Assembly: GCA_964544275.1 (NCBI GenBank)
Contig: CAZIZX010000001.1
Location: forward strand, 196,342-260,341
Origin: an uncultured Gammaproteobacteria bacterium
Lineage (GTDB): Bacteria > Patescibacteriota > Microgenomatia > UBA12405
Length of the DNA: 64,000 bases
Direction: 5' to 3'
Shown here: positions 17,537-39,236 of the stretch, piece by piece
Layout of the letters: each line of letters opens with the position of its first letter
Position numbering within the stretch: the stretch's first letter is position 1
Program-made: the position numbers and the translations under genes
The notes under the pieces: generated by a model
The model's input: the letters and a program-made list of their open reading frames with translations, nothing else
Told to the model about the DNA's origin: nothing
Databases searched by the model: none

Positions 17537-18601
17537 TTGCAAATGAAAATAAAACCCCTTTACCAAATAACTGCTATATCCTGCCTTGCCACTTTATTAT
17601 TAACTTTTCTGATTTACACGCCTCTATATTCTGTCGGCAGCCGTCTCTCTGCCAAATTCGGACAGCCCCTAAGATATTTTCCTGATACTATTCTGGAAGC
17701 AGTTAGCAACCATCTCAAACAACCGGTCAAAAAAATAAACTTTATTATCCTTGGTACCGATAAACGGGATGATTCCTTCGAAAAAAATGAAATGACCGAC
17801 ACTATCATCTTTGCCTCCTTTGACACTGCCAGTAAACGTATCAGCCTGGTATCTTTACCTCGTGACCTTTGGTATGAACCAACTCAGTCCAAGATCAATG
17901 CTTTTTATGAAAACTCCAAAGAAAGCAACAGTTCCGCCGACTTTGATCAAATTAAGGGCCACTATTCAGACCTTACAGGACAAAAAGTTGATCGATTACT
18001 CGTCATCGACACCAACGATCTGGTTGACTTTGTCAATCTGATTGGTGGCGTCGATGTTTATCTGGAAAGTGGATTTGTCGATCAGCAATACCCTAACCCC
18101 GAATACATCGAAAACCCCTCTCCTCAAATACCCATATACAAAACAATTGAGTTTCCCTCAGGGTATTCTCACTTGGACTCAACTAACATTACTGAATTTG
18201 TTCGGTCCCGAAAAGGCTCCGATGATCCTCAAACAGGCGGTACCGATCTAGGCCGTATCCAGCGACAGCAGTTACTTATTAATGCCATTATTGCCAAACT
18301 GTCTTCTGGTCAACTTAATGATTTGGACAACATCACCAGTCTCTATCAATTTTTTCATCACAATTTGGAAACAGATATTACCGACCTAGACCTTTTTCAA
18401 ATCATTCTGGCCATCAACGGCCAGTTTAATCAAGTTAAATTAGAAAAATTTGAAATACCCATTTCTGCCACTTATTCCAAAAGTGCTCTCATCTATCACC
18501 CCAACCGATTCAAAAATAATCAATGGGTTTTTCTACCTGCCGATCCCAGCTTAGACCAACTACATCAATTTATGACCGACTCTTTAAAAAATGACAACTG
18601 A
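17537..18601 (+). CDS. LytR-CpsA-Psr (LCP) family cell-envelope glycopolymer ligase.
   Basis: N-terminal TM helix. LCP core motifs ILGTDKRDD, DTIIFASFD and ISLVSLPRDLW are present. Confidence 0.8.
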   Translation: MQMKIKPLYQITAISCLATLLLTFLIYTPLYSVGSRLSAKFGQPLRYFPDTILEAVSNHLKQPVKKINFIILGTDKRDDSFEKNEMTDTIIFASFDTASKRISLVSLPRDLWYEPTQSKINAFYENSKESNSSADFDQIKGHYSDLTGQKVDRLLVIDTNDLVDFVNLIGGVDVYLESGFVDQQYPNPEYIENPSPQIPIYKTIEFPSGYSHLDSTNITEFVRSRKGSDDPQTGGTDLGRIQRQQLLINAIIAKLSSGQLNDLDNITSLYQFFHHNLETDITDLDLFQIILAINGQFNQVKLEKFEIPISATYSKSALIYHPNRFKNNQWVFLPADPSLDQLHQFMTDSLKNDN

Positions 18602-21427: not shown

Positions 21428-21431
21428 CTCG

Positions 21432-22535: not shown

Positions 22536-22536
22536 G

Positions 22537-23229: not shown

Positions 23230-23452
23230 TATTTACAAAAGAACGGAACCACCAGCTTATATTTTTTTAGAAAATACCTATATTAATACTTATTTATACA
23301 ATAATATAAAAGAATATTAATATTATAAAAAAATTTTGTATTAATATGGTATTTTATATACCAAAGTATATGTAATAATTATAACCTATAATCTTATTAT
23401 TTGCAACATTGACAACATTTTTTAAAATCTCCGCTTTTGATATACTCATTTT
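23230..23452. promoter_or_regulatory. AT-rich divergent intergenic region, the longest in the window, separating the sortase-substrate gene from the start of the glycosylation island. It contains the palindrome AATATTAATATT and an extended -10 (TGaTATACT, 23438-23446) 6 nt upstream of the GT2 start codon.
   Basis: 223 bp, mostly A/T, with a self-complementary 12-mer at ~23312-23323. TG at 23438-23439 and TATACT at 23441-23446 precede an ATG at 23453 with no SD. Confidence 0.4.
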
Positions 23453-24184
23453 ATGAAAAAACCAATCATCGACGAAATCTCAGTCTTTTTCCCCGCTTAC
23501 AACGAAGAAAAGAACCTCAAAACTACGGTATCCAAATCCATAGAAGTACTCAAATCTATTTCCCGCAAATGGGAAGTTATTATTATCAACGACGGTTCCA
23601 AGGATAAGACCCAACAGGTTGCCGAAAATATTAAATCCGACTATCCCGACAACATCAGCATCATCACCCACAGTCCCAATAGGGGATACGGTGCTGCCCT
23701 AAAAAGCGGTCTTTATAACTCAAAATATCAATGGATCGCCTTTATTGATTCCGATGGCCAATTTGATTTCGCCGAAATCAATCACCTTATAAAAAAACAA
23801 AAAGAAACCAAAGCCGATCTTGTTATCGGCTACTACCTTGGCAGAAAAGTGCCTTTTTATCGAAAATTTGGCTCACAGCTTTGGCAATTGGCTGTTTTCA
23901 CTCTATTTGGCCTTAAAGTCAGGGATATAGACTGTGGTTTCAAGCTGATCAATAAAAAGGTTGTCGACGCTATCCCCAGGTTGGAATCAGAACGGGGCCC
24001 GTTCATCTCTTCTGAATTCCTTATTCATTCCAAAAAAGCTGGTTTCAAAATTGTTGAAATTGGCGTTAACCATTACCCTCGCACAGCCGGAGAAGCCACT
24101 GGTGCCAAACTAAGCGTTGTTCTCGCCGGTTTCAAAGATTTATTCACTCTCTGGAAAAAAATTAACCTGGCTCATGCTAAGTAA
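23453..24184 (+). CDS. GT2 polyprenyl-phosphate monosaccharide synthase (DPM1/GtrB/ArnC-like).
   Basis: ISVFFPAYNEE, IIINDGSKDKT, RGYGAALKSG, FIDSDGQFD and DCGFKLI are motifs of the soluble-domain DPM1-like GT2 fold. Confidence 0.8.
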   Translation: MKKPIIDEISVFFPAYNEEKNLKTTVSKSIEVLKSISRKWEVIIINDGSKDKTQQVAENIKSDYPDNISIITHSPNRGYGAALKSGLYNSKYQWIAFIDSDGQFDFAEINHLIKKQKETKADLVIGYYLGRKVPFYRKFGSQLWQLAVFTLFGLKVRDIDCGFKLINKKVVDAIPRLESERGPFISSEFLIHSKKAGFKIVEIGVNHYPRTAGEATGAKLSVVLAGFKDLFTLWKKINLAHAK

Positions 24185-25676
24185 AATCTTCCATCACAGA
24201 GGGTTAATTGTTTTAATCCTTCTTCTAGCTGCCTTCCTTCGTCTCTATCGCCTCCCTGAATACATGGAATTTTTGGGTGATCAAGGCCGAGATATGTTAA
24301 TTATTCGGGACTTGCTCAAAAACGGGAACCTGTTTTTTATCGGGCCCACCACCAGCATGGGACACATGTACCTTGGGCCTTACTATTATTACTTGATCGC
24401 CCCGTTTTTACTTATTTTCAACTTCAATCCAATCGGCCCTTCTGTTTTTGTTGCTCTCTTAAGCGTCTTGACCTGCTATTTAATCTACAAAATAAGCTGT
24501 GCTTGGTTTAATAAACCAATTGCTTTTTTGTCCTCTCTCCTTTTTGCCATATCGCCGGTAGTAATCAAATACTCAAATTTTTCCTGGAATCCAAACGTCA
24601 TGCCTCTGTTTTCGCTCCTGTTTATTTACTTTGTTTCCCAGGCTGTTTTCAAAAACAAACCCCGAGACTTGCTTTTCGCTACCCTCGCCTTTATTATGGC
24701 AATTAATTCTCATTATCTTGCTGTCTTATTGCTACCTCCCGCCTTTTTACTTTTACTTTACAAATTTTTAAAAGTCAAAAAAGACAGTAAAAACCCAAAT
24801 AAATCATTCAGTTTATATCTACTGCTCTCTTTCTTACTTTTTCTAGTCTCTTTAACGCCACAGATACTCTTTGACATCAGGCACAACGGCCAAAATATTA
24901 ACGCTTTTATCAGTTTCTTTTTTGACAGGCAATCAGGTACGGGATTCAATCTTATAAAGTATTTCCAGTCAATTCCTCAAATTACGTTCCTGATTTTCGG
25001 ACGTCTGATAACGGCAAAATACTTAAATATTGGCTTATTGTTCACTATATTTTCATCTTTATTTGTTTTGGTAAAAATTATAAATATCCTAAAGACCAAA
25101 TCCTATTCACAAAATAAGTATTTTATTTTACTCGTCACCTGGATTGCGTCTGGGATCCTCGGCCTTAGTCTTTATAATTTACAACTTGATCACTATTTTG
25201 GCTTCTTATATCCTGCAGTCTTTATCTTAACAGCTTTTTTTATTCATCAAGTTTACAAATCCTTTTCAATCTTGCGGATTACGTCGTTCATCATCACCCT
25301 TACCCTAATTATTTTATCTTTTCTCCAAAATCCCTTCCGTTTCTCTCCGCCCCGACAGCTTATTTACACTCGAAACATTGTCGACTTTATTATCAATCAA
25401 TCCAGCGACGAACCCTTTAATTTTGCCCTATTATCCAAGAACAACTATGACCCTTCATATCGCTATTTTTTTTATGAGAATGACTCACCCATCTTTGATC
25501 TTCACAACAAACTAACTGAACAGTTATTTGTCGTCTGCGAACCTTGGCAAAATGATTGCCAGCCCATAAACCACCCCCAATGGGAAATCGCCGCTTTCGG
25601 TTGGTCAAAAATTGACAAAGAATGGTCCGTTGAAGGAACGACGGTTTTTAGGCTAGTCCACAACAAGCAACCTTAA
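24174..25676 (+). CDS. Polytopic membrane protein, putative GT-C-type glycosyltransferase; paralog of 28046-29362.
   Basis: About 12 predicted TM segments. The N-terminal LRLYRL...GDQGRD...GPTTSMGHMYLGPYYYY is shared with the ORF at 28046. It follows a DPM1-like GT2, as in ArnC/ArnT-type pairs. Confidence 0.45.
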   Translation: MLSKIFHHRGLIVLILLLAAFLRLYRLPEYMEFLGDQGRDMLIIRDLLKNGNLFFIGPTTSMGHMYLGPYYYYLIAPFLLIFNFNPIGPSVFVALLSVLTCYLIYKISCAWFNKPIAFLSSLLFAISPVVIKYSNFSWNPNVMPLFSLLFIYFVSQAVFKNKPRDLLFATLAFIMAINSHYLAVLLLPPAFLLLLYKFLKVKKDSKNPNKSFSLYLLLSFLLFLVSLTPQILFDIRHNGQNINAFISFFFDRQSGTGFNLIKYFQSIPQITFLIFGRLITAKYLNIGLLFTIFSSLFVLVKIINILKTKSYSQNKYFILLVTWIASGILGLSLYNLQLDHYFGFLYPAVFILTAFFIHQVYKSFSILRITSFIITLTLIILSFLQNPFRFSPPRQLIYTRNIVDFIINQSSDEPFNFALLSKNNYDPSYRYFFYENDSPIFDLHNKLTEQLFVVCEPWQNDCQPINHPQWEIAAFGWSKIDKEWSVEGTTVFRLVHNKQP

Positions 25677-27346
25677 AGCTTTGTTTTCAAAACTCTATAA
25701 GCGAGAGGTCCATTCGGCAGAAATATGTCTTTCACCAAAACCAGATTATGGTCTTCAATTTGCTGGTCAGATAGGGCCAAAGCATCACATATTAAATACT
25801 GCTCAACCCCGCTGGTATCTTTCCCAAACTCAATGTTTTTGACCGTTACTTTACCCAGATATTTTTCGTTTACTCTGCTTAGGTTTTCATAATAATCCTG
25901 GGGGAGTACCTCGATATTATCGGCCTGATATAAATCCGGACTATACTTCAACCAAAACAAAGCCTGAATATATGGTTCAGCCCTGGAGTTATCAATAATA
26001 ATCGGCAAATCAGAATCATCCTCGATTACCGTCTTTATAGCTTCTTCTATTCCATAACCCCAATAAGAAGCCCGAAAATATTCGTTTAATTTAAAAACAC
26101 TGCTGTTCAATTTAATAACGGAATAAGACACTCCTAACAGAACAACTGCAACCATAATTTGATACTTCGCCCGATTCTTTACAAGCCAATCGAGACCCAA
26201 ACTCATTACCATTACCAATGGTATCAATTGTGGCAAAGCTCTGATTGTTGAATATGGGTCGCGTGTCAAAGACGCTGGTATTGGGGATACTAGCAACATA
26301 CAAACGACAAAATACCTTAATTTCCCTAGATTCTTACATCTAAACAGAACAATTAGTCCTAAAACATAAAAAGGAAATTGCCAGGCAAAAAAAGCGGAAA
26401 CATCGGGATATGAACTTCTAGGTTCAGCGTCACCCAGATTAAATAAAAATCTGGGTGAATAATAAGAAGAATATAACGATAAAAATTCTCTGGCCATTAA
26501 AGTAACTTTCTCGTTAATCAGAAAAGAAATTTGTCCGCTAGCCTGAAAGTCGTGACCGTATGGCATATTTCTCTGGGTTGAAAATATATTCAACACACTC
26601 GCTCTGGCCGAAAATCCGGGAGTTCTGGCAATCAACACTGTCGGCAAAACCATTATCACTCCCAAAATAACAGAAATTGTCAACGGCAATACGCTTTTTC
26701 TTAGGTTGTCCCACATTATTTTTCTATGATGAAAAACCAACAAGATTAAAATAACTGGGGCCACAATTCTTTCGGAATGATAAGTCAAAAAAGACAAAGC
26801 CCAAAAAATCGCCGACACCACCAGCAACCATTGTTTTTTAAACGACTTGTAAAACAACAATATAGCAACCATTAAAAACAACAAAGCCAGGTTAGTTTCA
26901 TAGGTAGTCCGAGACATTACTATATGCCAGGGTGAAACAGCCAACAAAAAGGCAGACAGCAACGGTAGGGTTCTTTTATATTTTTTTGGGCTGATTTCTT
27001 TGACCAAAAGATACAATATAACTACACTAAATAATCCAGCAACAGCAGACGGCAATCTGGTTACTCTTGGACCCAACTCGGCAAAGTTCAACACCAATGC
27101 CAATATGTAACCATAAACGGGAGCCTTAAAATCACCGAAAGACCGAAACACTACCGGTAGTGTTTTTCCAAACTCATCCTTACCCGTAACCTTCAAAGAA
27201 TAGGCATTATATCCTATCGCTGCTTCATCCAAATAAAATCCCTTTGGTACCTCGCCTAATTTATAAAACCGAAAATATCCACCAATTAATAAAACAATTA
27301 TGAATAATAAATATTTCATATTACTCTTATCAATTCCATCAAACAA
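25673..27346 (-). CDS. GT-C glycosyltransferase of the ArnT/PMT (GT39/GT83-like) family.
   Basis: N-terminal YLDEAAIGYNAYSLKVTGKDEFGKTLPVVFRSFGDFKAPVYGY matches the DE..Y...A......G.DE.G..P...RS.GD.K.P.Y signature of polyprenyl-P-sugar-dependent GT-C enzymes. Polytopic. Confidence 0.75.
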   Translation of the reverse strand: MFDGIDKSNMKYLLFIIVLLIGGYFRFYKLGEVPKGFYLDEAAIGYNAYSLKVTGKDEFGKTLPVVFRSFGDFKAPVYGYILALVLNFAELGPRVTRLPSAVAGLFSVVILYLLVKEISPKKYKRTLPLLSAFLLAVSPWHIVMSRTTYETNLALLFLMVAILLFYKSFKKQWLLVVSAIFWALSFLTYHSERIVAPVILILLVFHHRKIMWDNLRKSVLPLTISVILGVIMVLPTVLIARTPGFSARASVLNIFSTQRNMPYGHDFQASGQISFLINEKVTLMAREFLSLYSSYYSPRFLFNLGDAEPRSSYPDVSAFFAWQFPFYVLGLIVLFRCKNLGKLRYFVVCMLLVSPIPASLTRDPYSTIRALPQLIPLVMVMSLGLDWLVKNRAKYQIMVAVVLLGVSYSVIKLNSSVFKLNEYFRASYWGYGIEEAIKTVIEDDSDLPIIIDNSRAEPYIQALFWLKYSPDLYQADNIEVLPQDYYENLSRVNEKYLGKVTVKNIEFGKDTSGVEQYLICDALALSDQQIEDHNLVLVKDIFLPNGPLAYRVLKTKL

Positions 27347-28041
27347 AAAATTAAATAAAACCCAAAAAGCAACCTTGCCTGTTTAAATCTGGCCATAATT
27401 CCAAGTCCATAAATTATCATTAACCCCAACGGAAACCACAAGACAAAATCATACCTGTCCGGGTTTTTCAACAAAGCCAGCAAAATAATCAGGCTTGAAC
27501 TTAAAGCCACCCACCAGGTTCTATTTTTATATTTTTTTATGTTTATGACTCCAACGAAAAATGGAATTATCGCCAAAAAAGGGAACTTCATTAAATTCTG
27601 GTTGTCGCCCACCAACTCTCTTGGGTGTAGCCCAAAAAAATAATTGTTCGGGTCAATCAACAAAAATAAATTTTTATTATATTTATCAATCACCTCAACA
27701 TACTTGTTTTGTAACAGCAGTGCTTCAATTCTGTTGTCATAAAGAGATCTTTTTGTGTTCAAATAATGCCAGTCCAGTTCATTTCTGCCCAATATTGTCA
27801 ATCTATCAATCCGATTTTTACCGCCAAAAAATATTCCCAAAAAAAGGACACCCAAAACCAAAATGAAACTTTTTAATTTCCCTTTTTTGAAACAATAAAA
27901 ACTCGTACCAATAATCAAAATTGAGGCAATTAATCCAAGGCACAACAAATTAATTCCATTGTATTTCCAAAACAAATATGGCCAAAATACTAATGATATT
28001 ATTGAAGCAATAAATACCTTTTTACAAACAACCAATCTCAT
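27316..28041 (-). CDS. Polytopic membrane protein, unknown function; the start codon is uncertain and the ORF extends to 28122.
   Basis: 7-8 hydrophobic segments and no recognisable catalytic motif. Its 3' end overlaps the ArnT-like gene. The 5' end would collide with the divergent gene at 28046 unless the internal Met at 28041 is used. Confidence 0.35.
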   Translation of the reverse strand: MRLVVCKKVFIASIISLVFWPYLFWKYNGINLLCLGLIASILIIGTSFYCFKKGKLKSFILVLGVLFLGIFFGGKNRIDRLTILGRNELDWHYLNTKRSLYDNRIEALLLQNKYVEVIDKYNKNLFLLIDPNNYFFGLHPRELVGDNQNLMKFPFLAIIPFFVGVINIKKYKNRTWWVALSSSLIILLALLKNPDRYDFVLWFPLGLMIIYGLGIMARFKQARLLFGFYLIFCLMELIRVI

Positions 28042-28045
28042 TAAT

Positions 28046-29362
28046 ATGAGTATTATTACACAACCAAACAAGGCTTTTTTATTACTAATTATCATTTTGG
28101 CCCTGTTTTTTCGGTTATACAATTTAGAAAACCGCTACTCTTTTGACTGGGACCAGGAAGACGACGCCGTCAAAGTCACCCAAATGATAAAGACTAAACA
28201 CCCCCGGCTTTTGGGTCCCCGTGTTGCCGGCGAAGAAGGATTTTTCGTCGGCCCTCAACACTATTATTTTTTGATTCCATTTTATCTTTTGACCAAACAA
28301 GATCCGATTGCTGGTGCCTACGCCTCAGTGTTTATCGGTATCTTAACTACCATTGTTTACTACTTAATCAGCCAAAAATTATTCAACCGAAAAATTGGCC
28401 TTTTTGCCTCTTTTATCTTTGCCATCAACCCCATCTTAACTAGCTGGAATGTCATGTATGCTCCCTTAATTTCCTTATTAATCTTTTTTTTATGTCTCCA
28501 AATCTTGAATGGCCAAACCAAATATTATCCTTTTTTATTCTTTGCTTTTTCATTTTCCGCCACCACTCACTTAGTTCCGGCATCTCTTATTATTCCTGTT
28601 ATTTTTAGTCTTTTAGTATCCCCAAAACCAAACAAAAAAACCTTCTTTATTTCTCTTTTCGTCTTTTTCATACCCCTTCTCCCTCTTATTATTTTCGATT
28701 TTAGAAATGATTTTCTCAACCTCAAAACAATTTTCACCTTTATCCAGTCCAGGTCAGTATCACAGTCTGTTCCAAATTATTTTCTAAGAAGCTTTTTTAG
28801 AAGCTTAAATATCTTTTTGCCTTTTGTTCCAGACTTTATCGGCCGCCTTTTGGCATTAATATTACTCCCACTATCAATCACCCTCTTTACCACCAAAAAA
28901 ACAAAACTTTTTTACCTTATCTGGATTCTTACTCCTCTCGTTTTATTGTCTCAATACCACGCCAGTATACCCGAATATTATTACGGGATGGTTACAGCCC
29001 TTCTGCCCCTGCTTATCTCATTTTTCGTAGTCAAACTCAAACAGCCCTTACTGATAATAACAATAATTTTAATATTTCTTCTGGAATTACCTGGTCTTTT
29101 TACAAAAAAAGCTAGCATATCGTTAAAAGTCAAAAAAGACACTGTTCAATACCTCAGCTACCAAACCCGAGACCAGCCATACAATGTATCATTTGACCTT
29201 CCCCTCGGCTGGCACACCGGTTACAACTACCTTTTTTCTTATTACCGAAACCCGCCTCAGGAAATTCCTCAGGCCCATCTTTATTCCATTTACTTACTGT
29301 CAGAACCTGCCACCGGCGAATTAGTTTACGAAAATAATCCACTCGGTGTTGTTAGAAAATAG
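28046..29362 (+). CDS. Polytopic membrane protein, putative GT-C-type glycosyltransferase; paralog of 24174-25676.
   Basis: FRLYNLENRYSFDWDQEDD...GPRVAGEEGFFVGPQHYYFLIPFYLL aligns with the N-terminus of the ORF at 24174. About 12 TM segments. The ORF track begins at 27959; I prefer the internal Met just before TM1. Confidence 0.45.
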   Translation: MSIITQPNKAFLLLIIILALFFRLYNLENRYSFDWDQEDDAVKVTQMIKTKHPRLLGPRVAGEEGFFVGPQHYYFLIPFYLLTKQDPIAGAYASVFIGILTTIVYYLISQKLFNRKIGLFASFIFAINPILTSWNVMYAPLISLLIFFLCLQILNGQTKYYPFLFFAFSFSATTHLVPASLIIPVIFSLLVSPKPNKKTFFISLFVFFIPLLPLIIFDFRNDFLNLKTIFTFIQSRSVSQSVPNYFLRSFFRSLNIFLPFVPDFIGRLLALILLPLSITLFTTKKTKLFYLIWILTPLVLLSQYHASIPEYYYGMVTALLPLLISFFVVKLKQPLLIITIILIFLLELPGLFTKKASISLKVKKDTVQYLSYQTRDQPYNVSFDLPLGWHTGYNYLFSYYRNPPQEIPQAHLYSIYLLSEPATGELVYENNPLGVVRK

Positions 29363-29370
29363 CTACTATT

Positions 29371-30159
29371 ATGTATAATCATCTTATGCAAAACAAAGTT
29401 TCCATTGTTATTCCCTGTTTTAACGAAGAGGACAATATTAAAAGAGGTGTTCTGGAACAAGTTTATCAATTTTTGCGCCGACAAAAATACGATTGGGAAG
29501 TATTAATCTGCAATGACGAGTCCACCGACAATAGCCTACGTCTTGCTCGCCAGTTTGCCTCAAAACACGATAATTTCTCAGTACTTAACCTGCCTCATGG
29601 CGGCAAACCTTCGGCTGTTTGGGGAGGAATTCAAAAAGCAAAATATCCGCTAGTTCTTTTTACCGACATGGATCAATCAACTCCGCTCGAAGAACTAAAC
29701 AAATTACTGCCGTTTTTCCAAAAAAATTACGATGTTGTTATTGGTTCCCGCGGCGTTCAGCGTCAAGGCAATTCCAATATCAGAAAATTAATGTCTCGAG
29801 TTTTTTTGCTTTTCAGAAGATCAATTTTATTGTCAGATATCACCGACACTCAATGTGGTTTTAAAGCATTCAAAACAGACGTCGCCAAGAAACTTTTTCC
29901 CCGACTTCAATTTTTTCAGGACAAAGATAATAAATCAGGCTGGAGAGTTTCTGCCTTCGATGTCGAATTATTGTTTATGGCCCAAAAGGCTGGCTACAAA
30001 ATCAAAGAAGTTCTGGTTGAATGGAAAAACGAAGATATCAGTACCACCAAAGGTGACGATTCAGCCAGATTCAAAAAAGAATCAAAACAAATGCTTCAGG
30101 AAATCTGGCGTGTCAAAAAAAATGATTTAATGGGAACTTATGACTCTGTCAAAAAATAA
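29371..30159 (+). CDS. GT2 polyprenyl-phosphate monosaccharide synthase (DPM1-like).
   Basis: VSIVIPCFNEEDNI, LICNDESTDNS, TDMDQSTP and TQCGFKAF. The C-terminal amphipathic region is as in DPM1/ArnC. Confidence 0.8.
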   Translation: MYNHLMQNKVSIVIPCFNEEDNIKRGVLEQVYQFLRRQKYDWEVLICNDESTDNSLRLARQFASKHDNFSVLNLPHGGKPSAVWGGIQKAKYPLVLFTDMDQSTPLEELNKLLPFFQKNYDVVIGSRGVQRQGNSNIRKLMSRVFLLFRRSILLSDITDTQCGFKAFKTDVAKKLFPRLQFFQDKDNKSGWRVSAFDVELLFMAQKAGYKIKEVLVEWKNEDISTTKGDDSARFKKESKQMLQEIWRVKKNDLMGTYDSVKK

Positions 30160-31666
30160 ATTAATTCCACTCTCCCTCCTTTTAGCTTGCCTGACTTATC
30201 TTTTTTCCAGAATTCAAAACCTCACCAGCCTACCCGTCTTTGGCGACGAGGCCATATATATTCGCTGGTCCCAGGTTATAAAAAACGTCGAAACCCTTCG
30301 CTTCATCCCTCTAACCGACGGCAAACAACCACTTTTTATGTGGCTGACCATTCCTTTCTTCAAACTATCCTCAGACCCGTTATTTTCCGCCCGACTCGTT
30401 TCCGTACTTTCCGGCTTGGGTATAACCCTTTTACTCTTCCTTGCCTCCTGTCTCATTTTTAATTACCAGTCAAAAGACAAAAATATCAAAACGTTTTTTA
30501 CGGACTCCCTTTCTTCAAATTTTCCCGCCACCCTAATTGCCCCAACAATCTACCTTTTACTGCCCTTCTCGTTCTTCTTTGACAGACTAGCGCTGGCCGA
30601 TACTCTTCTTAGTTTTTTTGGACTTTCAGCCCTCCTGCTCAGTTTTCTTCTCGGCAAATTTCACCGACTTGATCTTTCTTTTATCCTCGGTCTTGTTCTT
30701 GGTCTAGCCTGGATAACCAAATCACCGGCCATATACTTTATCGTTCTCTCCCTGCTTACTTTTCTAATTTTAAATTACAAAAAACCACTGACTTTAATTT
30801 ATCCCCTGGTATCCGTCTTTATGTCCTTCTTAATTTATAACCTGCTCCGGCTCGGTCCTCAATTCCACATGATCTCCCTCCGCAACCAAGATTATGTGTT
30901 TTCCCTCTCTGAAATATTGTCTCATCCTCTCGACCCGTTTATTCCACACCTATCCGATATTTACGCTATATTTTCACACTATATTTCCTTGCCCCTAATC
31001 GCTTTTTTTTACTTTCTGATTTCAGCTCTAAAAAACAAAAAAGTATCCTGGGTTCACCTCACACTTTTTCTCTGGTTCATATCCCCCTTACTTTCCAATG
31101 CCGTTTTTGCCAAGACTTTTACCGCCCGTTACATACTCTACATTCTGCCTTCTTTTATTCTCCTATTCTCTCTCTTAATCTCCCGGTCAGCACTGTTAAT
31201 CAAACATAAACATTGGCGGTTTGTTCTTGCCCTCTTGTTCATCCCTGGATTCTTGTGGGTAATCGGTATCTCCCGCTCTCCTTTTACCCAAAAATTACCA
31301 CCCACCGACGCCGGCTATTTGACCGATTGGACCTCGGGGTGGGGAATCAAGGAAAGTGCTTCTTTCCTGATTGACAGATCAAGACAAAATAACGTTATTG
31401 TTGGTACCGAAGGCGCTTTCGGAACTCTTCCCAACGGACTCCAAATCTATACTGATGGCACCAATAATTTAACAGTTATTGGTCTGGGATTAGGTTTTGA
31501 CACCATTCCTTCGAACCTCGTCGATGCCAAAAACCATGGCGACGAGGTCTATATGCTGATAAACCAGTCCCGCCTGGTATTATTACCCGACGAAATTGCC
31601 AAACTAAAAACAATTCACCAATACCTCAAACCTGACGGAGACAAGCTCTTACTCCTACAAATATAA
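30140..31666 (+). CDS. GT-C glycosyltransferase, ArnT/PMT-like.
   Basis: N-terminal LPVFGDEAIYIRWSQVI...GKQPLFMWL (DEA.Y motif). Polytopic. It sits directly downstream of, and overlaps, a DPM1-like GT2. Confidence 0.65.
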   Translation: MTLSKNKLIPLSLLLACLTYLFSRIQNLTSLPVFGDEAIYIRWSQVIKNVETLRFIPLTDGKQPLFMWLTIPFFKLSSDPLFSARLVSVLSGLGITLLLFLASCLIFNYQSKDKNIKTFFTDSLSSNFPATLIAPTIYLLLPFSFFFDRLALADTLLSFFGLSALLLSFLLGKFHRLDLSFILGLVLGLAWITKSPAIYFIVLSLLTFLILNYKKPLTLIYPLVSVFMSFLIYNLLRLGPQFHMISLRNQDYVFSLSEILSHPLDPFIPHLSDIYAIFSHYISLPLIAFFYFLISALKNKKVSWVHLTLFLWFISPLLSNAVFAKTFTARYILYILPSFILLFSLLISRSALLIKHKHWRFVLALLFIPGFLWVIGISRSPFTQKLPPTDAGYLTDWTSGWGIKESASFLIDRSRQNNVIVGTEGAFGTLPNGLQIYTDGTNNLTVIGLGLGFDTIPSNLVDAKNHGDEVYMLINQSRLVLLPDEIAKLKTIHQYLKPDGDKLLLLQI

Positions 31667-31684
31667 ATCATGTAGAATACAAGA

Positions 31685-33427
31685 ATGCTCAAAGCCTTAA
31701 TTCCCAAGAACAAGCTCGGTTGGTTGTTCTATGTCGTTTTATTCACTGTTCCCACCTATTTTTTTCTCATCTCTCACCCCGGACAATATTACAACATGCA
31801 CGACGACATGCAAATGATTCGTCAATTGGAATTTGAGAACTGCATCCAGGATGGTCAAATCCCTTGCCGTTGGAACTCAAACATGGGCCATGGTTATGGT
31901 TATCCTTTGTTTAATTTCTACCCTCCGCTGCCCTACATTGTTGGCCAAGTTTTCAGGACATTTCAACTATCTTTTGTTGAAACAGCCAAGTTAGTCGCCG
32001 TTTCTCACTTTGTTTTAACTTCGATTTTCATGTTTATTTTGGCCTCCTCTATATTTGGTAACATTGGCGGTTTTATCTCGGCTTTATTTTTCTCATATGC
32101 CCCGTACCACGCACTAAATATTTACGTTCGTGGTGCCTACAACGAAGCCTGGGCCGCTGCTTTTTTCCCTCTCGTTTTTTATTTTTCCAGAAACATTATT
32201 CTTCATCAAAAAAACCGTCATTTGTCCGTTATTGGGCTGGCTCTAGCCTATGCCGGCATCTTTCTTTCCCATAACCCCATGGCCATGACTTTTGCTCCGG
32301 CGCTGTTAGTCTGGATAATCTTTTGGCTATTCCAAAAGCACAAACAAAACCTTAAAGCCTACATCAAACCACTCCTCCGGTTACTTTCAGCTGGGGCGAT
32401 ATCTTTGGGCTTATCCGCCTTCTTTACCTTGCCTGTCATCTTCGAATCATCTTTGGTCCAAATAGAAACCATGTTTCAAAACTACTATAGTTTTCAAACC
32501 CATTTTACCACCATCAGGCAACTCTTTTTCAGCAACTATTGGGGAGACGGCGCCTCTATTTGGGGACCGGGAGATGGGATGTCTTTTATGATTGGGTTCT
32601 TACAATGGATGGTCCCATCACTAACCTTGATTTTTTTTGGTTTCAATTATCTAAAACACAAAAAAATCAACAAATACTTCTATCTAACAATAATGCTGGT
32701 AATTCTGTCGTTTTTCTACAGTTTTTTGACCCACGAAAGATCAGCCTTTATTTGGACCCAACTATCCATACTTCAAAAAATTCAATTCCCCTGGCGGTTG
32801 CTAAATCAAGCAGTCTTCTTGTTCTCACTAGCAGCTGGATCGGCTTATTACGCATTATCGAAATTAACAACAAATAAACTAGTTAGATCTACCGTAATTA
32901 CACTGCTTCTTCTTTCTCTCTACCTTACCAACATCTCCTTTTTTAAACCCTTTGTCTATGCTCCACTAACCGACCAAGATAAATTCTCAGGTTTTGCTTG
33001 GACCACCCAAATTACCTCGAATATTTATGATTATCTGCCTAAAACAGCCTCAAAAGCACCCGATGGTCCAGCTGGCGAATATATTGATCAAGTCAGTTCA
33101 CCGGACTACGAACTATATGGTCAAAAAAAGGGGACCGACTGGATGTTTTTTAACATCAAACTTGCAAACCAATCCTCTGTTACTATAGCCAGGTTCGCTT
33201 TCCCCGAACTAAAAGTATTTGTCAACAACGCCCAAGTAGACTACAAAATCGAACCCGTATTGGGTAGGGTGGTACTTGATCTGGAACCCGGGAATCACGT
33301 TGTCTACCTCAAACTTTACAATACACCCATAAGAACCATCTCTAATTACATTTCCCTCATAACTTGGTCAGGAATTGTCATCTATTGCCTCAAACCCCTA
33401 TGGAAAAAACCAATATCCAGGAACTAA
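31685..33427 (+). CDS. Large polytopic membrane protein of unknown family, with a periplasmic-loop acidic motif (MHDDMQMIRQLEF...GQIPCRW); candidate GT-C or oligosaccharide polymerase/transferase.
   Basis: 580 aa with about 13 TM segments. A conserved-looking DD motif lies in the first extracytoplasmic loop, and the soluble C-terminal domain is ~150 aa. It lies immediately upstream of the flippase. Confidence 0.35.
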   Translation: MLKALIPKNKLGWLFYVVLFTVPTYFFLISHPGQYYNMHDDMQMIRQLEFENCIQDGQIPCRWNSNMGHGYGYPLFNFYPPLPYIVGQVFRTFQLSFVETAKLVAVSHFVLTSIFMFILASSIFGNIGGFISALFFSYAPYHALNIYVRGAYNEAWAAAFFPLVFYFSRNIILHQKNRHLSVIGLALAYAGIFLSHNPMAMTFAPALLVWIIFWLFQKHKQNLKAYIKPLLRLLSAGAISLGLSAFFTLPVIFESSLVQIETMFQNYYSFQTHFTTIRQLFFSNYWGDGASIWGPGDGMSFMIGFLQWMVPSLTLIFFGFNYLKHKKINKYFYLTIMLVILSFFYSFLTHERSAFIWTQLSILQKIQFPWRLLNQAVFLFSLAAGSAYYALSKLTTNKLVRSTVITLLLLSLYLTNISFFKPFVYAPLTDQDKFSGFAWTTQITSNIYDYLPKTASKAPDGPAGEYIDQVSSPDYELYGQKKGTDWMFFNIKLANQSSVTIARFAFPELKVFVNNAQVDYKIEPVLGRVVLDLEPGNHVVYLKLYNTPIRTISNYISLITWSGIVIYCLKPLWKKPISRN

Positions 33428-34875
33428 AGCAAAAAACAACCACCAGTATCTTTTTCCTCTCACTGAGAAATATTGGAATTCAGGCTATATCAACTGTTGG
33501 TTTTTTTCTGCTCACCATTCTACTTGGCACAGGTGAAGTTGGCTTATTTGCTATCGTGGCTGAATCTATCGGTATCTTGGGCTATTTTTCAGATGTAGGT
33601 CTGGCTTCAGCCCTTATCCAGCAAAAAGAGAAAATCAAAAAGATTGAACTGCAAACCACTTTCCTTATTCAACAAACACTTGTGGCGTTATCTCTTACAG
33701 CAGTAGCCTTGTTTTACTCCCGCTTCAGTGCTGCCAGAGGTTACGGGCCAAAAGAATTCTGGATTCTTATCTCACTTTGCTACTCTTTTGCAGCCGCTTC
33801 ACTCAAGACCATTCCATCTGTCCAGCTGGAAAGAAATCTCAACTTTAAACTCTTTTCCATCATCGATGTTTCCGAAAATATCACTTTTTACTTCTTTGCC
33901 GTCCTTTTCGCCTTTTTAGGTTTCGAGGGCTATTCCTATGCTATCGCCATTTTTATCCGAAGCACTCTAGGACTGATCCTCATGTATCGCTTCAGTCCTT
34001 GGCCCATCGGTTTTGCTTTCTCAAAAGAATCAGCCAAAAAACTATTTAAGTTTGGCATACCTTTTCAACTCAACTCTTTTATCGCCCTGGCCAAAGACCG
34101 CCTGTCAAATTTACTGGTTGCCGGCATTATCGGTCGGGAAGCCTTTGGCATTTTATCCTGGGCCCAAAAAGGACCCAGAATACCCCTAAGTTTCATGGAC
34201 GCCGTTATGAAAGTTACCTTCCCAACCTTCTCCCGTATCCAGGATCAAACCGATATTCTCAAACGTTCCATCGAAAAGAGCATTTTCTTCATATCTTTAT
34301 TGGTTTTCCCTTCGCTTGTCGGTATCTCCCTTTTAGCGCCCGACATAATTAACTTTATCCCACGATACTCCAAATGGGCTCCGGCTATCTTACCCCTATA
34401 TTTATATGCCATCAATGCTGCCGTTGCTTCTATTACCACTCCTCTAACTAACGCTTTCAATGCCGTCGGCAAAATCACCACTACCACCAAACTCATGATC
34501 ATGTGGACCGTCCTAACCTGGATTTTTTACCCCATACTAAGTTCCCGTTACGGTTACATTGGTACCGCTATCGCTTCATTGATCGTCGGCAGCAGCTCGA
34601 TTGTCGTCTGGATTTTGGCCGCCAAAATTTTCAAAGTTAATGTCCTTAGTAACATCAAAAATTCACTCATCGGCTCTTTTTTCATGTCCATATTTCTAAT
34701 AGCCTTAAATTACACCAACTTACCTCTAATTTTTCTGATCCCGGCCAAAATTATTTTCGGGGCTGTCACCTATTTACTGGTACAACTATTAATCTCTTCC
34801 AGTCAAATTAATTGGTTTTTGGCCCAAATTAAAATTATCAAAAATAGAAAACAAGTCCCGATTTCCACTCCATGA
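33400..34875 (+). CDS. wzx: Wzx-type oligosaccharide flippase (polysaccharide biosynthesis protein, MOP superfamily).
   Basis: About 14 TM segments. The N-terminal SLRNIGIQAISTVGFFLLTILLGTGEVGLFAIVAESIGILGYFSDVGLASALIQ is typical of Wzx/RfbX flippases. Confidence 0.75.
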   Translation: MEKTNIQELKQKTTTSIFFLSLRNIGIQAISTVGFFLLTILLGTGEVGLFAIVAESIGILGYFSDVGLASALIQQKEKIKKIELQTTFLIQQTLVALSLTAVALFYSRFSAARGYGPKEFWILISLCYSFAAASLKTIPSVQLERNLNFKLFSIIDVSENITFYFFAVLFAFLGFEGYSYAIAIFIRSTLGLILMYRFSPWPIGFAFSKESAKKLFKFGIPFQLNSFIALAKDRLSNLLVAGIIGREAFGILSWAQKGPRIPLSFMDAVMKVTFPTFSRIQDQTDILKRSIEKSIFFISLLVFPSLVGISLLAPDIINFIPRYSKWAPAILPLYLYAINAAVASITTPLTNAFNAVGKITTTTKLMIMWTVLTWIFYPILSSRYGYIGTAIASLIVGSSSIVVWILAAKIFKVNVLSNIKNSLIGSFFMSIFLIALNYTNLPLIFLIPAKIIFGAVTYLLVQLLISSSQINWFLAQIKIIKNRKQVPISTP

Positions 34876-36575
34876 AAAAAACAGGCTTTTTTGGCCCGAT
34901 CCTCCTCATCCTTCTTTCTTCGGCCATAATTTCCATGACCATGGTCAGAAGCGGACTTTTATATGACTTTGGCATCGGCTTCTGGGGCCCAAATGGTCAC
35001 GATGCCATCTGGCACCTGAGCCTTATCAACCAACTAAAACAAAACATTCCACCCCTAAATCCCGTCTTCTCCAGCTCAATTTTAAAGAACTACCACTGGG
35101 GGTTTAATCTCCTTACCGCCATTATTTCCAAAATTACTTCTATTAATCCATCAACACTCTACTTCCAAATTTTACCCATAATCTTTGCCCTGCTTTTGGG
35201 AACTCTTTCTTTTTATCTGGCTTATAAATTAACTCGAAGCCATCGACAAGCTCTGATTTTCACTTTTCTTAATTATTTCGCCGGTTCGTTCGGTTTCTTG
35301 TATACCCTGGCAACTACATCTTCCATCGGCGGTGAATCGTTGTTTTGGTCGATGCAATCATCTTCAATTCTACTCAATCCACCTTATGCCCTATCCATAC
35401 TCATACTGCTTTTGGGATTTATATTATATTTTAACCAAAAAATAAATTACAAAAAGGCCTTCTTTATCGGATTTTTCTTCAGTTTACTCACACTCACAAA
35501 AATTTACGCCGCCATCATATTTGGCGGTACTCTGGCAACTTACATTGTCATCCAATACCTAACCACCAAAAAAATTATCAAAACAGACCTTGTCCTCCTC
35601 CTCTCCTTCTCTTCTTTTTTCCTACTTTTTGGTTATTCCCTCGGAGTTTTCTCTTCTCAATCTCTTATTGTTTTCCACCCCCTCTGGTTTGCTCACACCA
35701 TGATCGAATCAACGGACAAATTTTACTTACCCCGTCTCGCCTCCTACCGCTTCAACCTCTCCCAAAATCTTAATCTTATCAAACTGCCAGTTTTCTTCTT
35801 CATCGAATTTGTCCTCACGCTTATTTTCATTGTCGGCAACACCGGTATCCGCCTGTTTGGGCTATCAGAAATTGTCCGTCACCTAAAATCAAACAAAGTA
35901 ATCACCAAGTCAACGTTATTTTTACTTCTGTTCCTGACACTCTCTCTCCTCTTTCCTCTTTTGTTTATTCAAAAAGGAACCCCTTGGAACACCATCCAAT
36001 TTTTTTACTACTTTCTACTTATTCTAAATTTCTTTACCGCCGCCTATCTATCAAAATTGTTTGAAAAATCCAAAGTATTGGTTGTCATAATTTTACTTCT
36101 TTCCTCTACTACCTCATTTTCCTCCCTCAAAGATTACTTTGGCTTTCCCCCCCCCAGCGCAATTCCCACCTCGGAAGTCAAAGCTCTCTCTTTTCTCTCA
36201 ACCCAAAAACCTGGTATCATTCTTACCTTTCCTTTTGATAAATACAAGAAAAATGAACTAAAGTTACCCACACCTCTTCCGCTCTATCTTTATGAAACAA
36301 CAGCCTATGTTTCTGCTTTCACTCAAATGCCCACCTTTATCGATGACGAAATGAACCTAGACATAACCGGATTTAACTGGCAGGACAGAAAGAACCAGGT
36401 AACTAATTTCTACCAATCAACCGATCCGATCACTTCCCGGGGTTTATTGATAAACAACGATATTTCATACATATATCTAGTTAATCATCAGAATCTCAGC
36501 CTGAGCACCATCCAGCTCGGTCTTGACCTGATATATAATCAGGACAACGTTAGGATATACCGCGTCCAAAGGTGA
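34872..36575 (+). CDS. Large polytopic membrane protein, unknown family; candidate Wzy-like polymerase or en-bloc glycan transferase.
   Basis: 567 aa. The N-terminal 400 aa are multi-TM (WGPNGHDAIWHLSLI motif in loop 1), and the C-terminal ~150 aa are soluble. It is translationally coupled to wzx by an ATGA overlap. Confidence 0.3.
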   Translation: MKKTGFFGPILLILLSSAIISMTMVRSGLLYDFGIGFWGPNGHDAIWHLSLINQLKQNIPPLNPVFSSSILKNYHWGFNLLTAIISKITSINPSTLYFQILPIIFALLLGTLSFYLAYKLTRSHRQALIFTFLNYFAGSFGFLYTLATTSSIGGESLFWSMQSSSILLNPPYALSILILLLGFILYFNQKINYKKAFFIGFFFSLLTLTKIYAAIIFGGTLATYIVIQYLTTKKIIKTDLVLLLSFSSFFLLFGYSLGVFSSQSLIVFHPLWFAHTMIESTDKFYLPRLASYRFNLSQNLNLIKLPVFFFIEFVLTLIFIVGNTGIRLFGLSEIVRHLKSNKVITKSTLFLLLFLTLSLLFPLLFIQKGTPWNTIQFFYYFLLILNFFTAAYLSKLFEKSKVLVVIILLLSSTTSFSSLKDYFGFPPPSAIPTSEVKALSFLSTQKPGIILTFPFDKYKKNELKLPTPLPLYLYETTAYVSAFTQMPTFIDDEMNLDITGFNWQDRKNQVTNFYQSTDPITSRGLLINNDISYIYLVNHQNLSLSTIQLGLDLIYNQDNVRIYRVQR

Positions 36576-36591: not shown

Positions 36592-37527
36592 ATGAAAAAC
36601 CAACCCCTTATTTCGGCGGTAATTAATGTCCGAAACGAAGCTGATGTTTTAAATAAATGTCTCCAATCTTTAACCAATTTTGCCGACGAAATCATTGTTG
36701 TTGACATGCATTCAATTGACGGTTCTGCCCAAATAGCCCAAAAGTATGGTGCCAAAGTTTTTCCTTATCGGCCCATGAAAGTAGTCGAACCCGCCCGCAA
36801 CTTCGCTCTTTCCAAAGCTACCGGTAAATGGATAATTCTGCTTGATCCCGACGAGTATCTAAACAAAACCCTAAAAAAAGAACTCAAAAAAATAACTCAA
36901 AGATCGGATGTTGATTTCGTCAAAATCCCTCGCAAGAATATTATCTTCGGCAAATGGATCCGTCATAGCAACAGTTGGCCGGATTACCTCATCCGTTTTT
37001 TCAAAAAAAATCACGTCACCTGGAAAAAAGAAATTCACAGTCAGCCAGCCACCAAAGGTGTCGGCTTGACTCTACTGGATTCAGAAAAACTCGCCATCCG
37101 CCACCTTAATTATCGATCAGTCACCTCATTCATCCAAAGGGCCATCAGATACAGCGGAGTTCAGGCTGATGAACTCAAATCGCTAGATTATAAACTCAAA
37201 ACCAGTGACTTCATCCTCAAACCGGCCCAAGAATTCAACAGCCGCTTTTTTTCTGCTGAAGGTTACAAAGACGGCTGGCACGGTCTGGTTTTCTCTCTTC
37301 TCCAGGCATTCGCTGTCTGCCTGGTCTACATCCGTCTCTGGGAAAAACAAGGCTCCCGCGACAAACCGCTATCCAAAGAATCTTTTGTCTCTGCCAGCCA
37401 GGAAACAGTCTACGAATATAGTTATTGGTTTACCAGATATTTTAGCCAGGAATATACCCTAAATTATTTCAAAATATTTTTTATAAAATTCAGACATCTG
37501 CTGGACCGCTTCACCAAAAACTTTTAA
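36592..37527 (+). CDS. GT2 glycosyltransferase (WaaE/KdtX-like subfamily).
   Basis: ISAVINVRNEADVL...ADEIIVVDMHSIDGSAQIA and ILLDPDE (DxD). The C-terminal amphipathic W..G..G motif is shared with the ORFs at 38437 and 47519. Confidence 0.75.
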   Translation: MKNQPLISAVINVRNEADVLNKCLQSLTNFADEIIVVDMHSIDGSAQIAQKYGAKVFPYRPMKVVEPARNFALSKATGKWIILLDPDEYLNKTLKKELKKITQRSDVDFVKIPRKNIIFGKWIRHSNSWPDYLIRFFKKNHVTWKKEIHSQPATKGVGLTLLDSEKLAIRHLNYRSVTSFIQRAIRYSGVQADELKSLDYKLKTSDFILKPAQEFNSRFFSAEGYKDGWHGLVFSLLQAFAVCLVYIRLWEKQGSRDKPLSKESFVSASQETVYEYSYWFTRYFSQEYTLNYFKIFFIKFRHLLDRFTKNF

Positions 37528-37528
37528 T

Positions 37529-39225: not shown

Positions 39226-39236
39226 TATAATAAAAC

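Follow-up and report, generated by a model that had tools for sequence, protein, structure and literature searches.

A Shapirobacteria-type surface-glycan locus in which genes for candidate polyprenyl-phosphate sugar synthases overlap genes for GT-C membrane proteins

Multi-component systems of transmembrane glycosylation have been described already with adjacent genes for GT-A and GT-C glycosyltransferases, with several such pairs per genome, with variants that employ a Wzx-type flippase and with variants in which the GT-A enzyme is combined with a separate membrane protein (PMC8035078). A locus of this kind is described here from a 64,000-nucleotide stretch of DNA (the window), positions 196,342 to 260,341 of contig CAZIZX010000001.1 (assembly GCA_964544275.1), from an uncultured, groundwater-type bacterium of the candidate phyla radiation (CPR; Patescibacteria). 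At its centre are two short genes of glycosyltransferase family 2 (GT2), GT2a and GT2b, each overlapping the gene of a polytopic membrane protein of GT-C type. The arrangement is likened to the CsbB/GtcA/YfhO, GtlA/GtlB, L. lactis CsdAB/CD/EF and GacI-GacJ/GacK/GacL systems (PMC8035078, PMC5836110, bioRxiv 10.1101/180810). Genes are referred to below by the start coordinate in the window, those on the minus strand being marked (-), and their positions are collected in Table 1.

Common to the locus and the Gram-positive multi-component systems are a gene for a GtrB/DPM1-type GT2 beside a gene for a polytopic GT-C, the possibility of several pairs per genome, and a wall-polymer context with an LCP ligase. 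The GacI-GacJ/GacK/GacL system also provides the Wzx-type flippase variant (GacK) and the known variant of a GT-A that needs a separate membrane protein (GacJ); a Wzx in place of a GtrA-type flippase is itself a known variant (PMC8035078). Unlike the Gram-positive systems, the synthases of the window are without transmembrane (TM) helices, their genes overlap those of the GT-Cs, no GtrA-type flippase accompanies them in the window, and a single 40-kb locus in a ~1-Mb genome contains ten GT-Cs, in an uncultured CPR bacterium. The locus is of the known multi-component kind (CsbB/YfhO, GacI/GacL, PpgS/Rv3779), greatly expanded in a ~1-Mb CPR genome. Three features are less ordinary: a TM-less synthase is strictly coupled in translation to a GT-C, GT-Cs are crowded into a very small genome, and a family of STT3-like proteins carries no annotation.

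Two further systems offer points of comparison. In mycobacteria, PpgS (Rv3631), paired with Rv3779, and Ppm1 likewise represent TM-less DPM1-like synthases of ~230-260 aa. Mycobacterial wall assembly (Emb, Aft, PimE) likewise employs many GT-Cs, which construct or modify a wall polymer on the outer side of the membrane, and AftA, AftB, AftD and Emb appear among the folds that match 30140 and 34872. The NCBIfam model of PpgS (226 positions) covers GT2a, GT2b and 49401 almost end to end. Unlike true PpgS, these proteins score 29-47 bits against a cut-off of 370; the sequence families of the GT-Cs also differ from the mycobacterial ones, and no decaprenyl-phosphoribose pathway (UbiA type) is present in the window. 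ArnC and ArnT follow the same logic of a lipid-P-sugar synthase and a GT-C, and provide the nearest sequence match of GT2a and the nearest fold match of 30140. Unlike in the ArnC/ArnT system, the other arn genes are absent from the window, the GT2s have none of the C-terminal TM helices of ArnC, and identity to ArnT is only ~15%.

In a preliminary description of the window, four short GT2s, at 23453 (GT2a), 29371 (GT2b), 49401 and 60229, were assigned to the DPM1/GtrB/ArnC type. The coordinates given there are right, and in a Pfam scan, which covered the window's open reading frames (ORFs) of at least 100 aa, all four contain PF00535, the catalytic domain of GT2 with GT-A fold, above the gathering score. 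The type assignment stands to differing degrees. By sequence, the best relatives of GT2a in the Protein Data Bank (PDB) are ArnC (9bhc/8vxh, 2.3e-16), GtrB (5ekp, 1.1e-15) and PfDPMS, the Pyrococcus Dol-P-Man synthase (5mlz, 7.7e-13), with residues 6-216 aligned, and those of GT2b are PfDPMS (1.3e-12), then GtrB and ArnC. The top solved relatives of these two proteins are exclusively polyprenyl-P glycosyltransferases, across the catalytic domain. PfDPMS is also the best PDB relative of 49401 (1.1e-11) and the sole meaningful one of 60229 (6.1e-8). In an all-versus-all phmmer comparison the 13 GT2s of the window fall into several groups, one of which consists of GT2a, GT2b and 49401 (49401 against the other two, 1e-18 and 1e-15), with 60229 joining loosely. 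As a control, sequence fragments of PfDPMS and ArnC were scored against all 13. With the PfDPMS fragment, GT2b, 49401 and GT2a reach 46.7-49.3 bits (46.9 for 49401), compared with 36.5 for 60229 and 32.0 for the ordinary GT2 41290; the ArnC fragment gives 62.9, 45.3 and 24.9 bits, whereas an ordinary GT2 reaches 14.4 and 60229 reaches 13.3. Judged on sequence comparison, the DPM1-like assignment is solid for GT2a and GT2b, probable for 49401 and weak for 60229, which is marginal at 36.5 versus 32.0 bits.

The motifs of the two paired GT2s are strongly conserved. The DxD motif is DSD in GT2a and DMD in GT2b. In 62 orthologues of GT2a, residues D99, D101, G102, Q103, D158, D160, C161, F163 and K164 are 100% conserved, as are D99-M-D101-Q-S-T-P and D159-T-Q-C-G-F-K in 80 orthologues of GT2b; over their lengths, the D-T-Q-C-G-F-K and D-I-D-C-G-F-K segments are 79-100% conserved across orthologues. 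D158 and G162 are invariant among all four short GT2s. The Asp...Gly-Phe-(Lys/Arg) segment aligns to 'DPVSGFF' of PfDPMS and 'DYGCMLR' of ArnC, and we take it to bear the acceptor-side catalytic residues. A downstream Asp...Gly-(Phe/Leu)-(Lys/Glu) segment is retained in 49401 and 60229. No TM segments are predicted in any of the four, so that a C-terminal TM anchor such as that of GtrB, ArnC and PfDPMS is lacking. Human DPM1 and mycobacterial PpgS and Ppm1 are TM-less synthases of DPM1 type, and this TM-less DPM1/PpgS subtype relies on a partner or on amphipathic helices. The QxxRW (Q/RxxRW) motif of processive synthases occurs in none of the 13 GT2s of the window. A processive synthase of the cellulose, chitin or PNAG type, the competing assignment raised in the preliminary description, was rejected, given the lack of both QxxRW and TM segments; the paired GT2s align instead to ArnC, GtrB and DPMS, with conserved DxD and D-x-x-C-G-F-K.

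The membrane partners follow the two GT2s without a gap. The ATG of 24174 overlaps the stop codon of GT2a by 11 nt and the ATG of 30140 overlaps that of GT2b by 20 nt, in agreement with the overlaps first reported. For 24174 a GT-C assignment follows directly from its PMT_2 match, and Asp36 of its first loop is 100% conserved in 80 orthologues. Neither Pfam nor NCBIfam gives a match for the protein 30140 itself. Among its 2,733 homologues, many, including some at 52-58% identity, contain PF13231 and bear the name 'glycosyltransferase family 39'. An AlphaFold2 model of 30140, built with 47 homologues (pLDDT 85.3, pTM 0.88), finds ArnT (5f15) first in a Foldseek search of the PDB (E 4.3e-9, TM-score 0.58, ~15% identity). 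Further matches are STT3, PglB, ALG9, ALG12, AftB, Pmt4, EmbA/B/C, AftA and a GPI mannosyltransferase. The best 40 matches are all GT-C or GT-C-related membrane proteins, and unrelated folds appear from rank 41. The predicted structure points to a GT-C fold for 30140, and with the PMT_2 match of 24174 both membrane partners would have the fold that the preliminary description expected of them.

The catalytic acidic residues in loop 1 of GT-C enzymes lie directly after TM1. In the 30140 family F34 and D36-E37 are invariant at exactly this place. An acidic pair or residue stands just after TM1 in all ten GT-Cs of the window, each of which has 8-15 hydrophobic segments in a hydropathy scan, consistent with the helices in the models of 30140 and 34872, and it is invariant in each family examined. 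A search for the loop-1 Asp or Glu had been proposed beforehand, and the residues found are D36 in 24174, D36-E37 in 30140, D40-D41 in 31685, D44 in 34872 and D64-D65 in 62043(-), with DE, EE or DD motifs after TM1 in the remaining GT-Cs.

Conservation of the pairs was followed in a scan with one genome per species, in which 358 genomes contain a relative of 30140; the best 80 loci, at 45-67% identity, were analysed. Orthologues at 50-67% identity come almost all from 'Candidatus Shapirobacteria' and from Microgenomates metagenome-assembled genomes, and it is from the names of these homologues that the organism is classed as Shapirobacteria-type. A GT2b orthologue lies directly 5' of the 30140-type GT-C gene, and overlaps it, in 75/75 loci with enough upstream sequence, and in 60/62 an M1-type GT-C gene comes immediately after the GT2a orthologue, the overlaps being mostly 8 or 4 nt. 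Co-occurrence of the pairs across genomes, a check suggested in the preliminary description, is borne out by these counts. The overlapping starts are kept at ~50% protein identity, which argues for selection on co-expression. The repeated pairing of synthase and GT-C reported earlier amounts to two true pairs; 49401 is unpaired, its neighbours being GT4 48334 and GT2 50207, and 60229 is doubtful, so that four pairs would be an overstatement. The conserved order is GT2a, GT-C, a variable slot, GT2b, GT-C (30140), GT-C (31685), Wzx, GT-C (34872), GT2, GT2, GT2, GT4, GT2 and in places a further GT2. Nothing lies in the slot, from the first GT-C to GT2b, in 34/62 loci, and in 28/62 it holds 1-4 extra GT-C genes, in either orientation; in the window it is occupied by 25673(-), 27316(-) and 28046. 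The slot is a hotspot of gene gain and loss, which suggests that the surface glycan is diversified through it. From sequence, the locus appears as the conserved core of a cell-surface glycan operon with a variable extension. Many operon-bearing contigs among L005-L084 were deposited as 'uncultured Gammaproteobacteria bacterium' (binchicken, SRP co-assemblies), and L030 as 'Candidatus Methanoperedens sp.'; such titles probably reflect mislabelling or misbinning of the records.

Downstream of the second pair, the flippase and the protein encoded after it form another constant element. The Wzx protein 33364 is the only flippase-like gene product of the locus and matches the NCBIfam models of MOP flippase (3e-29) and O-glycosylation flippase (1.6e-22). 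The gene 34872 always lies directly after Wzx. Its product has 1226 homologues, all unnamed or called hypothetical, and no Pfam domain, that of the STT3 family included, is found in it or in its orthologues. An AlphaFold model of 34872 (pLDDT 91.2, pTM 0.90) matches STT3 (3.6e-8), DPY19, AglB, PglB, AftA, ArnT and AftD in Foldseek, the best 20 matches all being GT-C, and the C-terminal domain taken separately is similar in fold to the C-terminal globular domain of AglB (3vu0). H43, D44, W47 and H48 are invariant in the family. Similarity to STT3, AglB and PglB extends to the C-terminal globular domain and to the place of the gene directly after Wzx, as expected for a user of a flipped lipid-linked oligosaccharide. 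Unlike these enzymes, 34872 has no STT3 Pfam match, and its TM-scores to STT3-type folds, ~0.5, are on a par with those to other GT-C classes; the WWDxG motif is not in the consensus of 54 homologues, which places 34872 outside the STT3 family. The position directly after Wzx suggests that 34872 handles a flipped lipid-linked oligosaccharide. As an alternative, a Wzy polymerase or O-antigen ligase was considered for 34872 and rejected, since its fold matches are GT-Cs of the ArnT/STT3 kind.

The best explanation of the locus, and one judged probable, is that sugars are loaded on a lipid, flipped, and transferred by GT-Cs to a wall glycopolymer in a Shapirobacteria-type CPR bacterium. The sequence of loading, flipping and transfer had been proposed in the preliminary description and is supported by homology, predicted fold and synteny. 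By homology, GT2a, GT2b and probably 49401 would load polyprenyl phosphate with a single sugar, taken from a nucleotide sugar, at the cytoplasmic face, as monotopic, TM-less enzymes of the DPM1/PpgS type. The lipid-linked monosaccharides would then be flipped to the outer face. This is the weakest step of the scheme, with Wzx 33364 as the sole flippase-like candidate; the Wzx-type GacK has been proposed as a flippase in Streptococcus pyogenes (PMC8035078). Outside the membrane, 24174, 30140 and the other eight GT-Cs, going by their fold and motif, would use the lipid-sugars, presumably with catalysis by the conserved acidic residue of the first external loop, and the products would decorate or extend an acceptor. 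Gene content suggests that the acceptor is most likely a wall-linked glycopolymer, because Wzx, the block of GT2s and GT4 and the upstream LCP ligase are all present; a sortase and an FtsEX/M23 module also belong to the wall-polymer context of the window. A lipid-linked oligosaccharide would be built by the cytoplasmic GT2s and GT4s, exported by Wzx, handled by 34872 and joined to peptidoglycan by the LCP ligase.

Several observations weigh against this explanation. Among the GT2s, the DxD position reads DAG in 49401 and DAS in 60229, the second Asp being replaced by Gly or Ser. All four short GT2s score far under the cut-offs of the curated NCBIfam models of ArnC, PgfS, PpgS and Dol-P-hexose transferase: the best score is that of GT2a against ArnC, 70.6 bits with a cut-off of 529, and the best matches of GT2b, PgfS and ArnC, are both far under theirs. 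No donor sugar follows from these scores, and the lipid acceptor of the GT2s is putative. No match came from searches of the PDB sequences with profiles of the 30140, 31685 and 34872 families, and hhalign comparisons among the three families gave probabilities <25%, so that the GT-C call for 30140 and 34872 depends on predicted structures. No GtrA-type flippase was found among the window ORFs of at least 100 aa that were scanned, where a smaller ORF could escape, and no priming phosphoglycosyltransferase was found among the ORFs scanned. There are ten GT-Cs to two to four synthases, which leaves most GT-Cs without a dedicated donor-making partner. The synteny sample comes from one lineage, Shapirobacteria and close Microgenomates, and part of the conservation could therefore be inheritance and not selection.

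Proteins as acceptors are a serious alternative, and protein glycosylation may also be present as well; as the explanation of the locus, it is considered rather unlikely. The GT-Cs would then act as PMT/TMTC-like protein O-glycosyltransferases fed by polyprenyl-P-sugars made by the GT2s, with secreted or surface proteins (pilins, sortase substrates, Ser/Thr-rich linkers) as targets, and 34872 would be an oligosaccharyltransferase that puts the Wzx-flipped glycan on protein. PMT_2 is the family of the protein O-mannosyltransferases. The joining of a GT-C to TPRs in 62043(-) gives the architecture of the eukaryotic TMTC O-mannosyltransferases. The nearest folds to 34872 are STT3, AglB, PglB and the protein C-mannosyltransferase DPY19, with the C-terminal domain of AglB in addition, and the flippase matches the 'O-glycosylation flippase' model. 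Potential substrates, a VPKTG sortase substrate (22537-23229, -) and a TM protein with a Ser/Thr/Pro linker (19379), are encoded just upstream. In streptococci, GtrB-type synthases supply GT-C protein O-glycosylation (PMC11092751). The LCP ligase and the large cytoplasmic block of GT2s and GT4 suit a wall polymer equally, however, and the 34872 family has neither a WWDxG-type motif nor an STT3 Pfam match; acceptors of the two kinds are not mutually exclusive.

A bolder reading, distinctly unlikely as a whole, would have Shapirobacteria build most of the surface glycan outside the membrane with about ten GT-Cs, comparable to the assembly of mycobacterial arabinogalactan and lipoarabinomannan. 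The TM-less synthases would dock on the GT-Cs with which they are coupled and channel synthesis, flipping and transfer without GtrA, and 34872 would represent a new bacterial class of oligosaccharyltransferase, moving an oligosaccharide en bloc to protein or wall.

It is very unlikely that the short GT2s are ordinary cytoplasmic glycosyltransferases that extend a lipid-PP-oligosaccharide or glycolipid. On that account adjacency to the GT-Cs would reflect a shared pathway only, and the donors of the GT-Cs would be different ones, such as the lipid-PP-oligosaccharides that serve polymerases or ligases. All NCBIfam matches far under the equivalog cut-offs, the lack in all four proteins of the TM helices of GtrB, ArnC and PfDPMS, the loss of the second Asp of DxD in 49401 and 60229, and a score of 60229 that barely sets it apart from the ordinary GT2 41290 would fit such a role, as would the resemblance of 34872 to users of lipid-PP-oligosaccharide donors. 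For GT2a and GT2b, in contrast, the solved structures that match best all come from polyprenyl-P glycosyltransferases, with alignments spanning the entire catalytic domain. The two proteins are distinct from the other GT2 groups of the window, and their strict coupling to GT-C genes is kept in 60/62 and 75/75 loci, respectively. TM-less synthases (human DPM1, PpgS, Ppm1) are also well known, and the PpgS model aligns end to end. Membrane-lipid modification of the ArnC/ArnT type, with resistance to antimicrobial peptides, is extremely improbable: among NCBIfam models and PDB entries alike ArnC matches GT2a best, ArnT is the best fold match of 30140, and some homologues are named 'Ara4N transferase-like' in some sources, but the genes lie inside a Wzx/GT2/GT4 glycan operon, the ArnC score of GT2a is far below its cut-off (70.6 versus 529 bits), no ArnA-, ArnB-, ArnD-, ArnE- or ArnF-type genes are in the window, and the CPR envelope is thought to be Gram-positive-like, without lipid A (PMC6744442). 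A lipid A system was rejected on the two grounds that no other arn genes accompany the pairs and that lipid A is not expected in CPR.

CPR bacteria, with genomes of ~1 Mb, spend their lives attached to other cells, and to our knowledge nothing is known experimentally of the surface glycans of CPR/Patescibacteria. No literature report was found on GT-C or DPM1-like pairs in CPR bacteria. Judging by related single-contig assemblies of 0.95-1.12 Mb, the ~40-kb locus would take up roughly 4% of the genome. Since the core order is kept across species at ~50% protein identity, it is probably central to the biology of the envelope, and the changing GT-C content of the slot hints that the surface is diversified in ways that bear on recognition by host or phage. 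Many homologues of the locus proteins are already named GT2 or GT39 by NCBI; the annotations gained here are those of 30140, 31685, 34872 and 62043(-) as putative GT-C enzymes, from sequence and model, with 34872 standing for >1,200 'hypothetical proteins'. The enzyme pairs are open to heterologous assay. The principle of a lipid-P-sugar synthase working with a GT-C is well established, and the value of the locus lies in annotation and in opening the biochemistry of the CPR envelope, not in a new mechanism.

Table 1. Features of the glycan locus and their positions in the window
Feature	Position	Strand	Basis
LCP-family glycopolymer-peptidoglycan ligase	17537..18601	+	LytR_cpsA_psr; NCBIfam LCP domain 68.4 bits, cut-off 62.3
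GT2a, DPM1/ArnC/GtrB-like, TM-less, candidate polyprenyl-phosphate sugar synthase	23453..24184	+	PF00535 5.8e-29
GT-C (family M1), overlapping partner of GT2a	24174..25676	+	PMT_2 2.8e-16; polytopic
GT-C (family M2), in variable insert between pairs	25673..27319	-	PMT_2 2.6e-12; loop-1 'LDE'; 548 aa
Small polytopic membrane protein, directly 5' of M2 GT-C 25673(-), same strand	27316..28041	-	No Pfam match even at E 5
GT-C (family M1 paralogue)	28046..29362	+	PMT_2 2.5e-6, 28.2 bits, cut-off 26.1
GT2b, DPM1-like, TM-less, candidate polyprenyl-phosphate sugar synthase	29371..30159	+	PF00535 2.2e-26
GT-C, ArnT-like predicted fold, overlapping partner of GT2b	30140..31666	+	AlphaFold model and Foldseek
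Further GT-C-type membrane protein, 3' of second pair	31685..33427	+	Pfam matches of homologues; invariant D40-D41
Wzx/MOP-family flippase	33364..34875	+	Polysacc_synt_3 3.2e-40; position conserved
GT-C, STT3/AglB-like predicted fold	34872..36575	+	AlphaFold model and Foldseek
Block of six cytoplasmic glycosyltransferases (GT2 x5, GT4 x1)	36592..42096	+	Pfam; conserved with the pairs
GT-C (PMT_2)	42093..43574	-	PMT_2 1.3e-9; loop-1 'AEE'
GT-C (family M2)	43604..45181	+	PMT_2 2.6e-7; loop-1 'WDE'; 25673(-) and 45929 as paralogues
Second small polytopic membrane protein, 253 aa, ~7 TM	45171..45932	+	No Pfam match even at E 5
GT-C (family M2)	45929..47515	+	No direct Pfam match; paralogue of 25673(-), 2.4e-60; loop-1 'PDE'
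Third DPM1-like GT2 (probable), no adjoining GT-C	49401..50210	+	PF00535 8.6e-24
Fourth GT2, weakly DPM1-like	60229..61032	+	PF00535 2.4e-11
GT-C-type membrane domain with C-terminal TPR repeats (TMTC-like)	62043..63755	-	TPR at residues 428-560; homologues

Beyond the two pairs the window is rich in GT-C-type proteins, ten in all. The preliminary description had listed those at 25673(-), 42093(-), 43604, 45929 and 62043(-) besides the two partners; this list is upheld by PMT_2 matches, paralogy or homologues and was short, 28046, 31685 and 34872 having been missed, so that the number is ten and not seven. PMT_2 is matched directly, above the gathering score, by 24174, 25673(-), 28046, 42093(-) and 43604, and not directly by 30140, 31685, 34872, 45929 and 62043(-). 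It is reached through homologues for 30140, 31685 and 62043(-) and through paralogy for 45929. The paralogues of 25673(-) are 43604 and 45929 (1e-45 to 1e-60), and 28046 is paralogous to 24174 (1e-27); the gene call for 28046 gives 438 aa, and its mechanical ORF begins at 27959. The matches of 31685 itself are weak (an STT3-type NCBIfam model at 2.4e-4, DUF6541 at 0.025). Among 41 orthologues of this protein, PMT_2 is found in 11 (best 5.5e-7), PTPS_related, a family of the GT-C clan, in 13 and YfhO in one; the acidic pair after TM1 is invariant and the position of the gene is kept in nearly all loci. The membrane domain of 62043(-) has no Pfam match even at E 5, the whole protein matching TPR families only. 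At E <= 0.001 this domain has 14,440 representative homologues, counted as cluster representatives. In a sample of 30, TPRs are present in all and PMT_2 in 10, and the aspartate pair of loop 1 is invariant.

Two small membrane proteins adjoin GT-Cs of family M2. Only 21 homologues of 27316(-) were found, of 241-273 aa and all named hypothetical, and they share an invariant loop, DPNNYFF..PR..NQNL.K. In 3/3 other contigs (L085:5001-7495, L086:5001-7465, L087:5001-7496) the homologue lies directly 5' of a PMT_2 GT-C of ~555 aa. This adjacency is a second conserved pairing, for which a subunit, a flippase or a protein for acceptor handling are options. The second small protein, 45171, sits between two M2 GT-Cs, directly 5' of 45929, and its gene overlaps both neighbours; 27316(-) and 45171 have no similarity by BLASTP.

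Exact copies of the sequence are present in two Logan assemblies and in an NCBI contig of 261,849 bp. From 14 to 64 kb the window is packed densely, only two intergenic gaps exceeding 30 nt. The left 23 kb contain housekeeping and envelope genes: UvrC, aminoacyl-tRNA synthetases, RelA/SpoT, sortase, SecA, BipA and RF, and also the LCP ligase, FtsE, FtsX, an M23 peptidase and a DUF11 protein. An unbroken island of glycan genes, ~40 kb, extends from 23453 to the right end of the window and comprises 13 GT2s, 4 GT4s, one Wzx/MOP flippase, four radical-SAM enzymes, a methyltransferase and the ten large polytopic membrane proteins. Within the block of cytoplasmic enzymes the order G36592-G37529-G38422-GT4_39237-G40421-(G41290) is kept in related loci. 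Directly 5' of the glycan operon, at 17537-22535 (+), are the genes for the LCP ligase, a methyltransferase, a 154-aa TM protein, FtsE, FtsX and the M23 peptidase. In a related 1.12-Mb contig (L003) the LCP ligase is upstream of the glycan genes in the same order, and the gene order 5' of the operon matches that of the window, save for the methyltransferase, which is not listed there. Genes for the control of cell-division hydrolases and genes for wall glycan are syntenic. The 154-aa TM protein, 19379, has a Ser/Thr/Pro-rich linker and is encoded just upstream of the glycan genes. The DUF11 protein (22537-23229, -) ends in VPKTG, a hydrophobic stretch and a basic tail, which together make up a sortase sorting signal; its gene diverges from the start of the glycan operon, a position kept in the same 1.12-Mb contig, and a sortase gene is found in the window at 3124-3834 (-).

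Toward the right end, within 51192-58353 (+), the four radical-SAM genes are interspersed with GT2 and GT4 genes. Two encode B12-binding radical-SAM proteins (HpnJ/BchE-like; 51192 and 56956) and two belong to the SPASM/twitch class (53685 and 55841), with the methyltransferase following at 59493. The set may point to an unusual modification of sugar or glycan. A scan for promoters and terminators over 22400-36700 found 43 sites, compared with 37 ± 6 in shuffled sequence and hence no excess, and transcription units were not drawn from it. GC skew is strongly negative in every 2-kb bin of 1-64000, from -0.08 to -0.45 (C>G on the plus strand), and this includes bins in which minus-strand genes dominate; a Microgenomates genome with unusual disparity between its strands has been reported (PMC7143001).

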